Below are positions 6,444 through 12,207 of a stretch of 64,000 nt of DNA, piece after piece. The position numbers and the translations under genes are program-made. The notes beneath the pieces were generated by a model. The model was not told where the DNA came from, searched no databases, and saw nothing but the letters and a program-made list of their open reading frames with translations. Numbering within the stretch: the stretch's first letter is position 1; every line of letters begins with the position of its first letter. Source of the stretch: an uncultured Verrucomicrobiae bacterium (lineage in GTDB: Bacteria; Verrucomicrobiota; Verrucomicrobiia; Chthoniobacterales; JAATET01); the NCBI GenBank assembly GCA_963803825.1, contig CAWDOJ010000011.1, forward strand, positions 211,170 through 275,169, given 5' to 3'.

Positions 6444-6482
6444 GGAATGGGGTCAGGAATGGGGTCAGGCGTCAAATCTTGA
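6444..6482. repeat. REP-like terminal repeat, left end (1.5 tandem copies)
   Basis: ggaatggggtcag gaatggggtcaggcgtcaaatcttga. Its reverse complement matches 8097-8123 at 25 of 27 positions. Confidence 0.8.
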
Positions 6483-6524
6483 ACATTTCCTTCACTCATC
6501 CTTCACACCCTTCCAAAACCACCC

Positions 6525-7218
6525 TCAATTCCTTCGGCACTCGTCGCCGCAAAGCCGGCGATCAACGTACCGCAGGATCTGCGAAACGTTTGCCGCGCTC
6601 TTCATCCCAAGCTGCTCAGCCAGCCACCCCTGCGACACCACCGTCCGCCTCGACCGCAAATCCGCCAGCGCCACCTTCACCGGATCGGGTCCCCTCCTCG
6701 CCCTCCTCCTCCTCCATTGCCCGCCGGTCCGTCCGCTCCACCATCGCCAGCCTTTCCCCGACTGTGTCCTTGGATCCAGAGTTCTCCAGTCCGCTCGCCG
6801 CCGCCAGCCAGTTCGCCCGACGTCCTGGCTCCAGCGCGTAGCATTGGCTCCGACTGCTATAAGGATAATCCAATAGAGTCTCCCGCGCCGAAGGCCGCAC
6901 CAGCCCCGCCCTCACCGGATTTCGGTGCACGCAATCCACCAGCATCTCTTAGTAGTAACGCTCCCGTCCTTCCACCAGCACCGCCTTGTAGCGATCCCCG
7001 AACAGCGGGCCCACTGCCCATGTCGCACGTTCAGCCACCTCGACACCGTATTCTGCAGCCACTTCATTCCCGTCACCAAGTTTGCCTCCGGCGTCTCCAC
7101 CAGCAGATGGTAATGATCCCCCATCAGCACCCACGCGTGACCCCGCCACCCGGTCATCTCACACCCCTCTCCCAGCGTATTGAGAAACGCCCCGAAATCC
7201 TTCCCGTCCTCAGAAACC
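6525..7218 (-). pseudogene. Y1 (HUH) transposase-like gene with C-terminal HTH, copy 1, degenerate
   Basis: HUH motif in GHAWVLMGDHYHLLVETP. In-frame TAA at 6949-6951 after ...VEGRERYY. One-base loss in a C run near 7012 relative to copy 2. The tail reads WLAEQLGMKSAANVSQILR (HTH-like) in another frame. Confidence 0.7.
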
Positions 7219-7288
7219 GGGAATGGGGTCAGGCGTCAAATCTTGAACATCTCTTCCACTCATCCTTCACACCCTTCCAAAAACACCC

Positions 7289-8093
7289 TTAATTCCTTCG
7301 GCACTCGTCGCCGCAAAGCCGGCGATCCACGTTCCGCAGGATCTGCGAAGCGTTTGCCGCGCTCTTCATCCCAAGCTGCTCAGCCAGCCACCCCTGCGAC
7401 ACCACCGTCCGCCTCCACCGCAAATCCGCCAGCGCTACCTTCACCGGATTGGCTTCCCCCCTCGTCCTCCTCCTTCTCCATTGCCCGCCGGTCCGTCCGC
7501 TCCACCATCGCCAGCCTTTCCCCGACTGTGTCCTTGGATCCAGAGTTCTCCAGTCCGCCCGCCGCCGCCAGCCAGTTCGCCCGACGCCCTGGCTCCAGCG
7601 CGTAGCATTGGCTTAGACTGCTCTAGGGATAATCCAATAGAGTCTCCCGCGCAGAAGGCCGCACCAGCCCCGCCCTCACCGGATTTCGATGCACGCAATC
7701 CACCAGCATCTTTTAGTAGTAACGCTCCCGTCCTTCCACCAGCACCGCCTTGTAGCGATCCCCGAACAGCGGGCCCCACTGCCCATGTCGCACGTTCAGC
7801 CACCCCGACACCGTATTCTGCAGCCACTTCATTCCCGTCACCAAGTTTGCCTCCGGCGTCTCCACCATCAGATGGTAATGATCCGCCATCAGCACCCACG
7901 CGTGACCCCGCCACCCGGTCATCTCACACGCCTCTCCCAGCGTATCGAGAAATACCCCGAATTCCTTCCCGTCCTCAGAAACCGGGCCTCGCCGATTCCC
8001 CCGCTCCACCACGTGGAAAAACGCTTCTGGATACTCAATTCGAAGGCTCCTAGCCACCGAAGGCACGCCGTCAAACCTGCCACACCAGGTCAC
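7289..8093 (-). pseudogene. Y1 (HUH) transposase-like gene with C-terminal HTH, copy 2, degenerate
   Basis: YPEAFFHVVERGNRR...GHAWVLMADHYHLMVETP...FGDRYKAVLVEGRERYY. In-frame TAA at 7713-7715, then MLVDCVHRNPVRAGLV. TAG at 7623-7625 (DYP*SS, versus DYPYSS in copy 1). A further frame change precedes the HTH-like tail. Confidence 0.7.
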
Positions 8094-8096
8094 CCC

Positions 8097-8152
8097 TCAA
8101 GATTTGTTGCCTGACCCCATTCCCCTCAAGATTTGTTGCCTGACCCCATTCC
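8097..8152. repeat. REP-like terminal repeat, right end (2 tandem copies, 29-bp period)
   Basis: tcaagatttgttgcctgaccccattcc occurs twice. More degenerate gaatgggg-type remnants continue to about 8175. Confidence 0.8.
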
Positions 8153-8346
8153 CCATTCTTGAACCCATTCCCGGAACGTGCGTCACGATCCCGGCGGACG
8201 ATGATGGGATCAGCGAGGATCGGAATTGCGATTCCCGCGCCGCCTGCGACAAATCCGATATCCAAGTTTCAAAATTCGAAATTCTCACCGCCGGCCTCGC
8301 AGCGGCCCGCGCCAACCTCATTCCTGGACTCATCCTCCAGGCCGTC

Positions 8347-8959
8347 ATGGTCGCGACGCTCGTTTCCTACTACGCGCTCCCGGCGACCCGTCCGTTCTTC
8401 GAGGTCCTCGTCGATCTCAAAGCGGACGGCGGGTACGCCTTCTCGTTCATTGCAACCGCTCTCGCCGGCGGATTTTTCCCGGAATTTCTCCGAATCGCCG
8501 TCTTCCAACGCTTCCGGATCGTTCGGACGAACCTCACCAGTTTTCTCTTCGGTTCGGTCTTCTGGGGCGGCATGGGAGTCCTCATCGACGCCTTCTACCG
8601 ACTGCAGACCCTCGCCTTCGGCAGCGACCCCACTGCGGTCACGGTCATCTCCAAAGGTCCTCGCCGACATGCTCGTCTTCACGCCCTGCGTCGGCGTCCC
8701 GCTCGCCGCCACCGCCTACCTCTGGAAGCAGCGCAATTTCGACAACGCGATCTTCGGCGACGTCCTCAATCTCCGCGGCTACCGCACCCACATCCTCCCC
8801 GTCCTCATTCCCAACTGGGCGGTCTGGGGACCCGTCGTCTGCGTCATCTACGCCCTCCCCGTCGGCCTCCAATTCCCCACCTACGTCCTCGCCCAGGCCT
8901 TCTGGACCCTCGTCCTCACGACCCTCACGGCCACCCAGTCGGTTGATAAATCGGACTAA
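8347..8959 (+). CDS. multi-pass membrane protein, family unknown; +1 frame break near 8656; true start uncertain
   Basis: Frame 1 reads ...LIPGLILQAVMVATLVSYYALP...FWGGMGVLIDAFYRLQTLAFGSDPTAVTVISK. Frame 2 continues VLADMLVFTPCVGVPLAATAYLWKQ...WAVWGPVVCVIYALPVGLQFP. The first canonical in-frame start is the ATG at 8347, yet coding-like sequence extends upstream to the mobile element. Confidence 0.45.
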
Positions 8960-8981
8960 TTTGACTAAATCCAATCTCAAG

Positions 8982-9173
8982 ATGAAAACCGTCGCTACTC
9001 ACGAAGCCAAAACGCACTTGTCCCGCCTCCTCGCGGAGATCGGCAACGGCGAAGAATACGTGATGACCTGCGGACCCGTCCCGGTGGCCCACGTGGTCGA
9101 CCATCCGGGCGAACTTCACCATTCTTTCGCCCGACACCCCCTTTCCAACCTCAGAGCCGCCCGAATCTGGTAG
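8982..9173 (+). CDS. Phd/YefM-type type II antitoxin (orphan)
   Basis: MKTVATHEAKTHLSRLLAEIGNGEEYVMT...PVAHVV matches the characteristic antitoxin N-terminus. Its last codons run into the tandem array and no toxin ORF follows. Confidence 0.65.
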   Translation: MKTVATHEAKTHLSRLLAEIGNGEEYVMTCGPVPVAHVVDHPGELHHSFARHPLSNLRAARIW

Positions 9174-9922
9174 ACCCCAAAGAACGCGAAGATTTCGAAT
9201 GCTTTTGACCGCAGATTACGCGGATTTACGCAGAGAATTCCTGATTAATCCAATCCTCACCCGTATCATCCGCGCAATCTGCGTAATCTGCGGTCCTATT
9301 CCTTCCCGTCCTTGAACATCTCCATCGTCCGCTCTCGCTTCTCCTTGGGCCGCCCGAATCCGGTAGACCGCGAAGAGCGCGGCGAATTCGAATCCTTTTG
9401 ACCGCAGATCGCGCGGATTACGCAGAGAATTCCCGGGAACTCCGGTCCTCACCCGCATCATCCGCGAAATCTGCGCAATCTGCGGTCTTATTCCTTCCCG
9501 TCCTCGAACATCTCCAACGTCCGCTCCCGCTCCTCGTGAGCCGCCCGAATCTGGTAGACCCCAAAGAACGCGAAGATTTCGAATGCTTTTGACCGCAGAT
9601 TACGCGGATTACGCAGAGAATTCCTGATTAATCCAATCCTCACCCGTATCATCCGCGCAATCTGCGTAATCTGCGGTCCTATTCCTTCCCGTCCTTGAAC
9701 ATCTCCAACGTCCGCTCTCGCTTCTCCTTGGGCCGCCCGAATCCGGTAGACCGCGAAGAGCGCGGCGATTTTGAATCCTTTTGACCGCAGATCGCGCGGA
9801 TTACGCAGAGAATTCCCGGGAACTCCGGTCCTCACCCGCATCATCCGCGTAATCTGCGTAATCTGCGGTTTCAATCCTTCCCGTCCTTGAACATCTCCAA
9901 GGTCCGCTCCCGCTCCTCCCTG
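9156..9922. repeat. higher-order tandem repeat, 4 units of 191-193 bp in A-B-A-B order
   Basis: Units start at 9156, 9349, 9540 and 9732 (gccgcccgaatc...). A1 versus A2 and B1 versus B2 are about 95-99% identical. Each unit holds a 27-nt-arm hairpin (for example gaccgcagattacgcggatt... 9207 to ...aatctgcgtaatctgcggtc 9295) plus a copy of the photolyase 3' end with a stop codon. Confidence 0.9.
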
Positions 9923-11269
9923 TGGTCGACCATCGGAGCCGGGTAGCCCTTCGCCAGCCCCTTTCCATCCTCCGGCGGCCCGAAGAAACGTTTTGCATCC
10001 ACGTCTCGCAACTCCGGCACCCATTCCCTCACGTATTCCCCCCGCTTGTCGAAGCGCTCGCCCTGCGTCCACGGATTCTGAATCCGAAAATACGGTGCCG
10101 CGTCCGCGCCCGTCCCCGCGCTCCACTGCCAGCCCCCGTTGTTACTCGCGATCTCGCCGTCGGTGAGTTGCTGCATGAAATAGCTCTCCCCCTTGCGCCA
10201 ATGCACGTGCAGGTCTTTCGTTAAAAACATCGCCGTGATCATCCGGCAGCGGTTGTGCATGAATCCCGTCGCCGCCAACTGCCGCATCGCCGCGTCCACG
10301 ATCGGAAACCCCGTCTCGCCCGCCTTCCATTTCTCGAAATCGGAGTCCGTCCCCGGCCACTTCACCCCGCCGTAACGCGGGTTGAAATCCTCGTCCAAGA
10401 CCTTCGGCCAATGCCAGAGGACCGCCTGATAAAACTCCCGCCAGATCAGCTCGTTCACGTAGGTCTCCGCCCCCTTCCGCCCCGACGCACCCCAGGCTCT
10501 CCGCCCGCTCCGCGCTCCGCTCGTAAACCTCCCGCGCCGACAGCAGCCCCCACCGCAAATCCTGCGACAGCCGCGATGTCGTGTCGCCCGGACGGCGTGT
10601 TCCGCGTCTGATCGTAGTCCCCAATCCCTCCACTCACCCAAGCCGTCAGCCGTCCCCGCGCCGCCTTCTCTCCCGGCTCGATGATGCTCCCGTTCGCCTC
10701 TCAGCCCCCAGTGCGCCAGCGAGGGCAGGTCCAGACTCTTCACGTTGTTCGGCGAATCCAGCTTCCGCAGCCGCCCCGCCGCCTTCCGCTTGTCCAACTT
10801 CCGCCAAGCCTTGGAATAAGGCGTGTAGACCTTATACGGCTCGTCACTCCCGGTCAGCACCTCGTCCCGCTCGTGACAGCAGACATCCTTGAAACAGCTT
10901 CAACTCGATCCCCGCCTCGCCCAAGGCCTTCCCCAGCCGCTCCTCGACGGCCCGCCCAAACGGATCCGGATCGCGGTTCGCGTAGATCGCCGCCGCCCCG
11001 ACCTCCTTCGCCAGCCCGACCAGCTCCCGCACCTGCTCGCCGCACCGCAGCGTCAACGTGCTCCCGATGGACTGCAAATTTCCCGCCAGCGCCTCGAGCG
11101 ACCCGCACAAAAACTCCTGCCGATGCGGCCCCGTCCACCCGTGCGATTTCGTCCATTCGCTCAGCACGTAGACCGCCACCACCGACTCCCCGTCCCCCGA
11201 AGCCGCCGCCAGCGACGTGTTGTCCGTAATCCGCAAATCCCGCCGAAACCAGTGAACAATCGTCTTCAT
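9871..11269 (-). CDS. phr: deoxyribodipyrimidine photo-lyase, disrupted by four +1 frame breaks (possible pseudogene or local indel errors)
   Basis: MKTIVHWFRRDLRITDN (N-terminus); EPYKVYTPYSKAW; EPGEKAARGRLTAWVSGGIGDYDQTRN; TSRLSQDLRWGLLSAREV; ETYVNELIWREFYQ; FMHNRCRMITAMFLTKDL...QWSAGTGADAAPYFRIQNP. These pieces lie in three different frames, with junctions near 10891, 10700, 10588 and 10490. Confidence 0.85.
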
Positions 11270-11281
11270 GCCTCAAATACG

Positions 11282-11375
11282 AACCACGGATCAGGACGGA
11301 TAAACACCGATAAACACGGATATTTCTTCAGGAATCGCATTCCCCATCCGTGTTCATCCGTGTCCATCCGTGGTT
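11282..11375. repeat. twin-10-mer hairpin element in the divergent intergenic region
   Basis: The left arm has four 10-mers (cacggatcag gacggataaa caccgataaa cacggatatt). The right arm has three (atccgtgttc atccgtgtcc atccgtggtt). The arms are mutually complementary with a ~24-nt loop. Confidence 0.7.
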
Positions 11376-11426: not shown

Positions 11427-12207
11427 GTGCCCGCGAAGCCCCGAGCCAAAAAGAAACCCGCCCCCAAGCGCCCAGCCCGCAAGACCAAGCTCCGCACCAG
11501 CCTCGCGCCCTCGCTTCCGGACACCGTCCCCACCCGCTGGGTGAAGTTTCTCGTCGGCCTCTTCCTCCTCCCGCCCGCCCTCGTCCTCACCCAGACCTTC
11601 TTCACAGCCTTCGCCCGCGCCACCGTCCACGAAGCCTTCTGGGCCACCGAGGAGTTCTGGTTCTTCGGCCTCGGACTCGTCCTCTGGCTCGTCACCTTCG
11701 TCGCACTCCCCCGCCCCACCCTCGTCTACGTCTTCGGCCACGAACTCACCCACGCCCTCTGGGTCTGGTGCATGGGCGGCCGCGTCAGCGCCTTCCAGGT
11801 GACCGAACGCGGCGGCCACATCCTCTCCGACCGCATCAACACCTGGATCGCCCTCGCCCCCTACTTCTTCCCCATCTACAGCCTCCTCGTCATCGCCATC
11901 TACGGCGCCCTCGGCCTCGCCTTCGACCTCACGCCCTTCCGCCCCGTCCTCTTCATGCTCATCGGAGCCACTTGGGGCTTCCACCTCAGTTTCACCCTCT
12001 GGATGATCCCCAAAGGCCAGTCCGACCTCCACTACGGCGGCACCTTCTTCTCGCTCACGATCATCTACACCCTCAATCTCGCCATCCTCGCCGTCTTTCT
12101 CGTCGTCGCCTCGCCCAACCTCACCCTCGCCGACCTTCGGGCGCGACCTCCTCGACAACGCCGTCACCGCCGCCGTCGCCGCCACCGACCTCGTCCAAAA
12201 CCGCTGA
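11427..12207 (+). CDS. polytopic membrane protein with HExxH motif (putative zinc metalloprotease-like); probable +1 break near 12135
   Basis: Lys/Arg-rich N-terminus, about 6 hydrophobic segments, and FGHELTHALWVW. After ~12135 the listed frame turns Arg/Pro-rich, whereas frame 1 reads FGRDLLDNAVTAAVAATDLVQNR then TGA at 12205-12207. Confidence 0.5.

Follow-up and report, generated by a model that had tools for sequence, protein, structure and literature searches.

How did the last codons of a photolyase gene come to be copied, together with a hairpin, several times in a row just beyond the end of that gene? The locus lies in a 64-kb stretch of DNA, referred to here as the window, and the array of copies occupies 766 bp of it. 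The likely answer is that a REP/REPIN-like hairpin standing directly after the photolyase stop codon was duplicated head to tail with its flanks, and that this happened several times. Judged from its sequence, the array is a tandem REP/REPIN-like cluster, a known kind of bacterial repeat cluster, with the copy number as in the assembly. The features on which the argument rests are the following.

8984 to 9097, plus strand: remnant of a Phd/YefM-type antitoxin gene, its first ~38 codons; the open reading frame extends to a TAG at 9171-9173.
9072 to 9165, minus strand: photolyase C-terminal relic, homologous to 9901-9984 (codons FGPPEDGKG...MVDH...RERT) and strongest at 9093-9165.
9154 to 9346, minus strand: unit 1, type A, made of spacer A, hairpin and gene-end copy KEKRERTMEMFKDGKE-TAG (Tandem Repeats Finder, alignment, translation).
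9207 to 9295, no strand assigned: hairpin 1, a heptad-type REP-like element with one extra T in an arm.
9347 to 9537, minus strand: unit 2, type B, made of spacer B, hairpin and gene-end copy HEERERTLEMFEDGKE-TAA (Tandem Repeats Finder, alignment, translation).
9400 to 9487, no strand assigned: hairpin 2, with 27-nt arms, 85% complementary, and a 34-nt loop.
9538 to 9729, minus strand: unit 3, type A, with 1 substitution and one 1-nt indel relative to unit 1 (Tandem Repeats Finder, alignment).
9591 to 9678, no strand assigned: hairpin 3, with 27-nt arms, 89% complementary, and a 34-nt loop; 83.5% identical to the hairpin of locus L016.
9730 to 9920, minus strand: unit 4, type B, whose gene-end part is the real photolyase 3' end, REERERTLEMFKDGKD-TGA (Tandem Repeats Finder, alignment, translation).
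9783 to 9870, no strand assigned: hairpin 4, adjoining the photolyase stop codon (TGA, 9871-9873) without a gap.
9871 to 11269, minus strand: deoxyribodipyrimidine photolyase gene (Pfam PF00875 and PF03441; C-termini of homologues), spread over at least three frames.
11282 to 11375, no strand assigned: a second, related hairpin with CACGGAT heptads, 30-nt arms, a 34-nt loop and the tail GGTTAAAAGCATT.

Tandem Repeats Finder reported the array at two periods, one of 192 bp (4.0 copies, 85% matches, no indels, 9156-9919) and one of 383 bp (2.0 copies, 97%, 9154-9918). The A-B-A-B order of the units is evident from gap-free repeat finding and from a MAFFT alignment. An earlier note on this DNA had described four units of about 192 bp, alternating A-B-A-B in a super-repeat of about 385 bp that is present twice, and both the repeat finder and the alignment agree with it. 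Besides its spacer, each unit holds a hairpin and the last 16-17 photolyase codons, closed by a stop codon (TGA, TAG or TAA). Between the two super-repeats there are 12 substitutions and 1 indel, unevenly placed: identity is ~99% over the first ~310 nt and ~89% over the last ~70 nt, with the differences concentrated from 9467 onward. The extra T at 9225, in the arm of the first hairpin, is a single-base indel and may be a sequencing error. Long spurious open reading frames run across the array and its flanks (9488-10126, minus strand, 212 aa; 8226-9173, plus strand, 315 aa).

The note had given each unit a hairpin with 27-nt arms, and the measured arms are indeed 26-27 nt long and 85-89% complementary around a 34-nt loop. 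Against dinucleotide shuffles, the array hairpins fold with z = -4.4 to -6.8. A 15-mer from the hairpin core occurs 8 times in the window, where 0.18 occurrences are expected, and all are within the array. The hairpins end in TTTT-RACC ... GGTY-AAAA, and the arms of types A and B are set apart by one compensatory change. Folding the whole array as RNA pairs arms across units, which shows nothing beyond high self-complementarity. Besides the four arrayed hairpins, the 64-kb window holds the one related hairpin at 11282-11375, which lies outside the array, upstream of the photolyase start, in the divergent region before the gene at 11427. It has the GGTYAAAAGCATT tail in common with the array hairpin family and suggests that several heptad variants of this family coexist in the genome.

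On the minus strand, the photolyase ends in REERERTLEMFKDGKD-TGA, with the stop at 9871-9873. Two of the copies read KEKRERT(L/M)EMFKDGKE-TAG (stops 9679-9681 and 9296-9298) and one reads HEERERTLEMFEDGKE-TAA (stop 9488-9490), so that minus-strand translation upholds the stop codons given earlier, TGA in the gene and TAG or TAA in the copies. The copied stretch had been put at ~17-25 codons; 16-17 codons plus the stop are clear, but the extension to ~25 is weak. Homologous photolyases end in ...GYPxPxVDHxxERxxTLxxF followed by 3-8 residues. Because these C-termini match the gene end, the copies derive from the natural gene terminus and not the reverse. All three gene-end copies keep both frame and stop, the sole length difference being an in-frame triplet. 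One gene-end comparison yields 2 synonymous and 2 non-synonymous changes plus the change of stop, and the internal E-type copy is ~89% identical to the real photolyase end. The copies encode nearly the same peptide, so cassette switching offers nothing.

The photolyase gene itself requires at least three frame changes to be read through, and the membrane-protein gene at 8104-8959 requires one. The photolyase genes on two related long-read contigs, L088 and L090, are likewise split. The frameshifts in the photolyase and membrane-protein genes are probably assembly indel errors and not marks of pseudogenes. Two open reading frames of this locus are already deposited as predicted proteins, the 63-aa 'antitoxin' (P0121) and a 329-aa frameshifted photolyase (P0001).

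In L090, whose photolyase is ~70% identical, a homologue of the membrane protein and the photolyase lie tail to tail with their stops nearly overlapping (L090 3107-3445). In the window, 910 bp lie between the membrane-protein gene and the photolyase, and this interval holds the antitoxin remnant, the older photolyase C-terminal relic and the array. The distance from TilS to the photolyase is ~5 kb in the window, including an NHL gene and transposase copies, compared with well under 1 kb in L090. Past the stop codons of three photolyase relatives (~70% identity), neither the hairpin nor the repeats were found. On this comparison the membrane protein/photolyase junction is taken to be a plasticity hot spot. 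Around the array lie housekeeping genes; the open reading frames scanned in 1-22 kb include no integrase, reverse transcriptase or cas gene.

The relic at 9093-9165 is a diverged direct copy of photolyase positions 9922-9984, with weaker similarity from 9072. Its local alignment score of 62 stands against a null of 26.5 +/- 5.7, and none of 5000 random windows from the same contig scored as high. The relic continues into the first 12 nt of unit 1, and each spacer starts with a dodecamer derived from the FGPP codons. Overlapping it on the other strand is the open reading frame 8984-9173, whose antitoxin identity comes from tblastn matches to annotated Phd/YefM genes; it has no Pfam or NCBIfam match, and no toxin gene lies downstream of the remnant. 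Its closest homologues (P0122-P0124, 66-69% identical) cover just 60-62% of it, and its C-terminus differs from theirs. The rest of the frame is antisense to the photolyase relic and to the start of unit 1. The earlier note had the array start inside the antitoxin gene. The open reading frame does end inside unit 1, but its likeness to Phd/YefM proteins is limited to ~38 codons. The end of the frame was rejected as genuine antitoxin sequence, since the closest homologues match ~38 residues and the DNA beyond aligns as photolyase relic. A distant Rhizobium Phd/YefM alignment reaching 'RAAR' at the end of the frame is regarded as chance.

The degree of divergence among these copies orders them in time. 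The relic is ~72% identical to the gene, types A and B are 85% identical, and the first ~310 nt of the super-repeats are ~99% identical. Between A and B, identity is 83% in the spacer, 93% in the arms, 76% in the loop and 88% in the gene end. Loop and spacer have diverged in step, which means that the unit was copied as a block and not built by independent hairpin insertions. The clustering of super-repeat differences from 9467 places the end of the latest event inside hairpin B, an end point that recombination between hairpin arms would be expected to give. The earlier note had left the origin between unequal recombination and insertion-associated duplication. Recombination or slippage is favoured by the block copying and by at least three age classes, and independent insertions are disfavoured.

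The history would begin with a REP/REPIN-like hairpin located immediately past the photolyase stop, at a junction that was originally tail to tail. An old duplication would have left the relic of ~30 photolyase codons, now 72% identical to the gene. A later duplication would have created the 192-bp unit (spacer, hairpin, 16-17 codons and stop), after which A and B split to 85% identity. A recent duplication would then have copied ~310 bp, still 99% identical, with an end point in a hairpin. The founding duplications most likely arose through replication slippage or template switching at a stalling-prone hairpin, and the later ones most likely through unequal homologous recombination between units or hairpin arms. 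The gene-end copies would be passengers, carried along because the hairpin abuts the stop codon. The outcome would be a photolyase 3' region with four strong stem-loops, and a role at the RNA level, in 3' end protection or in insulation of the convergent genes, is possible.

The copies show features that pure passengers need not have: three different stops at one position, a 3-nt indel that stays in frame, and an open frame in every copy. These open frames and stops would amount to slightly more conservation than pure passengers should show, in numbers too small to reach significance. On these small counts, they hint at intermittent purifying selection on the gene-end copies, which could act, for example, whenever a deletion in the array joined one of them to the gene again. 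An explanation built on this would have the array kept for a selected function, as a 3' UTR stabiliser, an insulator of convergent genes or a protein-binding array, with the gene-end copies kept translatable so that any recombination inside the array would leave an intact photolyase. The better conservation of arms and gene-end copies (93% and 88%) than of loop and spacer (76% and 83%), the retention of frame and stop through three different stop codons and the one compensatory change between A and B arms speak for it. The same is true of the fold of the minus strand, the mRNA sense, which is more stable (-51 and -55 kcal/mol) than that of the plus strand (-42 and -46 kcal/mol). The counts, however, are tiny, and arm conservation is expected of any member of the hairpin family. 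The photolyase relatives do without an array, most family members are single, there is no terminator signature with a U-tract, and gene-end variants encoding nearly the same peptide leave nothing to switch. We regard maintenance of the array for such a function as unlikely.

Head-to-tail duplication around a pre-existing hairpin also fits what is found when the hairpin is followed beyond this genome. Contigs from one genome per species were searched with a pattern of 25 bases taken from the outer stem (GACCGCAGATNNCGC, 40-70 nt, GCGNNATCTGCGGT), and 87 stretches fit it. Represented among them are Verrucomicrobiota, Acidobacteriota, Planctomycetota, Bacteroidota, Gammaproteobacteria, Armatimonadota and Patescibacteria. 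The 5' arm runs in the order T run, RACC and three CGCRGAT heptads at 9-10-nt spacing, and a variable loop follows; after the loop come three ATCYGCG heptads, GGTY and an A run. The stem covaries. Across 52 family members, column pair 16/95 is UA in 21 and GC in 15, and column pairs 21/90 and 31/80 are AU or GC. Of 86 elements, 42 have a two-base linker that is fully complementary, where 21.7% would be expected if the arms were independent. At least seven copies matching the strict pattern are present on three contigs of Luteolibacter sp. 5N476.

By BLAST, homology between the window and the family loci is confined to the hairpin, the best match being 83.5% over 97 nt (L016). The match stops there, and hence the rest of the unit, spacer and gene end, is local sequence. 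Family copies elsewhere are mostly solitary, without long flanking duplications. They lie within tens of bases of the ends of open reading frames, often between convergent frames and sometimes over the stop codon; in L016, the TTTTGACC of the element provides the TGA of the polymerase I gene. In Rfam, no part of the window matched a family at the gathering threshold and the matches at E <= 10 were at chance level, a full-text literature search found no paper with the arm sequences, and BLAST against phage and plasmid collections gave no match to the hairpin. Among 2.9 million viral contigs, there was one pattern match. From its sequence, then, the array hairpin is best read as a member of a dispersed, cross-phylum REP-like family, and this heptad family appears to be undescribed.

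Tandem units of a hairpin and its flank, ~184-186 nt long, also occur in three other loci. L023 has two 186-nt units of flank and hairpin that lie in a 5' region and take in no gene end, and in L095 the hairpin is repeated together with both flanks. The metagenome contig L102 (687-1175) carries at least three tandem 184-nt units, each with a family hairpin and a further segment. The minus strands of these units end in ...ALHAQS(G/R)N(R/L)TSE(G/V)-TGA, with the TGA overlapping the start of the hairpin. In L102, too, a gene terminus may have been copied, from a gene that lies off the contig.

The family data bear on serial insertion, in which the hairpin or a 192-bp element would have entered repeatedly at the photolyase terminus and made a ~100-nt target duplication or brought its own 3' end, a course of events akin to integrative elements accreting at a gene's 3' end. 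The hairpin abuts a stop codon in 4 of the 4 units, family members often sit on or beside stop codons (L016 for example), hairpin and spacer lie between the real photolyase end and the relic, which is a direct copy of it, and the junction is prone to insertions, all of which such a process would explain. Against it, spacer and loop diverge in step as in block copying, the leftmost flank copies the inter-hairpin segment only in part, and similarity to other genomes extends no further than the hairpin. Moreover, ~25 kb of this DNA contain no integrase, reverse transcriptase or other recombinase except a Y1 transposase with different terminal repeats, and the family is mostly solitary elsewhere, lacking long flanking duplications. 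We regard serial insertion as improbable.

A related reading, to which we give an equally low chance, makes the heptad hairpin an undescribed cross-phylum mobile element that lands on or near stop codons and whose own machinery makes head-to-tail copies of the gene terminus. Candidates for that machinery would be an HUH/Y1 enzyme acting on single-stranded hairpins, or template switching induced by the hairpin. The copies would stay translatable because recombination in the array repeatedly re-attaches another copy to the gene. If this were true, L102, with its units of ...ALHAQSxNxTSEx-TGA over a hairpin, would be the second instance. Expansion of a single hairpin unit by the assembler is the least credible origin and most improbable: the contig is rich in frameshifts typical of long-read indel errors, but the units are non-identical (15% divergence of A from B), the super-repeats are set apart by 12 substitutions and a single indel, unlike the contig's error profile elsewhere, 770 bp is far below long-read length, and comparable arrays stand in independent assemblies (L023, L102).

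Duplication of a hairpin with its flanks has counterparts among known systems. In the BIME-2 arrays of Escherichia coli, single REPs alternate in opposite orientations with short linkers between them. The present array resembles BIME-2 in being a mosaic of two alternating variants amplified in tandem in extragenic space. It differs in that every unit is a complete hairpin, in one orientation, joined to a ~100-nt flank that includes a gene end. The ICESt/CIME elements at fda in Streptococcus thermophilus are an accretion of integrative elements at a gene 3' end. There, as here, direct 3'-end copies stand in a row and only the first is joined to the gene. Unlike that accretion, this locus has no integrase, its units are 192 bp long, its repeats are not att cores, and its pattern is one of block duplication.

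The closest likeness is to the REPIN clusters of Pseudomonas fluorescens SBW25 (Bertels & Rainey 2011, PMC3116915). Tandem clusters of REP/REPIN elements with flanking DNA have already been published (PMC3116915, PMC3733652), and the array conforms to the definitions given there in having head-to-tail units of palindrome plus flank. Its hairpins also have the REPIN architecture, two inverted repeats that pair across a short spacer to form a long hairpin. In SBW25, as here, an inverted-repeat hairpin is repeated head to tail with its flank, and the clusters are extragenic and at gene ends. The largest tandem REPIN cluster of SBW25 has four REPINs over >700 bp (PMC3116915), compared with four hairpins over 766 bp here. 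Unlike SBW25 REPINs, the arms here are three 7-nt heptads at 9-10-nt spacing, the array hairpins are without the GTAG tag, and the copied flank takes in coding sequence. The hairpin family spans phyla, whereas REPIN populations have been described as lineage-specific and vertically inherited. No RAYT gene with flanking copies of the array hairpin was found in the available sequence. The label 'REPIN-like' thus describes architecture only.

Tagged REPs have been shown to lie mostly downstream of open reading frames and between convergent ones, and their termini often supply the stop codon (PMC3733652). The array shares with these GTAG/CGTC-tagged REPs (Di Nocera et al. 2013, PMC3733652) a place between convergent frames and a stop codon at the element. 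Its hairpins differ in lacking a terminal tetranucleotide tag and in having stems of 27 nt, compared with 6-13 bp in the tagged REPs (PMC3733652). Membership of the tagged superfamily was rejected on the hairpin termini, TTTT-RACC ... GGTY-AAAA, which contain no tag.

Other classes of repeat were considered and set aside. The array is not a CRISPR array, as the earlier note had also held: the inter-hairpin segments are 83-99% identical and not unique, the would-be spacers are copies of each other, no cas domains occur in the scanned neighbours, and the Rfam CRISPR-DR match scored 15.7 bits against a threshold of 45 bits. A diversity-generating retroelement was rejected because the frames scanned in 1-22 kb contain no reverse transcriptase domain and the differences are not confined to adenines. 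The copies differ by G/A, C/G, T/A and C/A changes in both directions and by an indel. Accretion of integrative elements was rejected as well, with no integrase in the scanned neighbourhood and 192-bp units copied as blocks. Intrinsic terminators were rejected on finding 1 weak site where 1.1 are expected, and the hairpins have their T run upstream and their A run downstream.

The window does encode a Y1/HUH transposase. Its Y1_Tnp gene, at 7713-8093, is a weak match to the REP-associated tyrosine transposase model and is accompanied by a fragment at 6912-7157. The Y1/HUH transposase element forms a ~765-bp tandem duplication, 95-96% identical, at 6456-8162. It is bounded by terminal inverted repeats of 27-37 nt (GGAATGGGGTCAGGCGTCAAATCTTGA), of which the right one is doubled (29 nt x 2, 8093-8150), and these repeats include GGGGWSAS, a motif that has been reported for TIR-associated tyrosine transposases. 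In the 64-kb window, no cognate RAYT with the array hairpin at its flanks was found, the Y1_Tnp gene at 7713-8093 having these different terminal repeats. A tblastn comparison of the window transposase with ~700 kb of hairpin-bearing loci gave no match.

The array changes little by itself, being one more case of REP/REPIN-type tandem amplification with flanks, and it illustrates that, when a hairpin is amplified, the coding end of a gene can be copied along and the gene left unharmed. The heptad family, found in at least six phyla and absent from Rfam, is of more use than the array itself. Annotation pipelines will make spurious open reading frame calls on such arrays, as with the 212-aa frame at 9488-10126 and the extended 'antitoxin' frame here, which knowledge of the hairpin family would prevent.

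Several further observations concern the family and its genomes. In seven loci of Luteolibacter sp. 5N476 (L008, L021, L031, L035, L036, L044 and L079), a CGCAGAT-type hairpin is nested in an outer hairpin with CACGGAT/AACGGAT heptads, and in L057 such a hairpin is nested in an outer one with CGCGAAG heptads. These nested hairpins make up compound elements of ~200 nt. Spacer B of the window (GACCGCGAAGAGCGCGGCGAA) is similar to one arm of the CGCGAAG type. In L099 (3497-3523) and L105 (4014-4049), three or four direct ACCGCAGAT 9-mer repeats stand in a row, which suggests that hairpin arms lengthen or shorten by 9-nt slippage. The strands of the window are very strongly biased in composition: GC skew is -0.216 overall and falls as low as -0.35 per 2 kb, whichever strand the genes of a stretch occupy. 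L016, the locus with the most similar hairpin, has a GC skew of +0.305 over 8 kb, and the other verrucomicrobial loci lie within +/-0.15.
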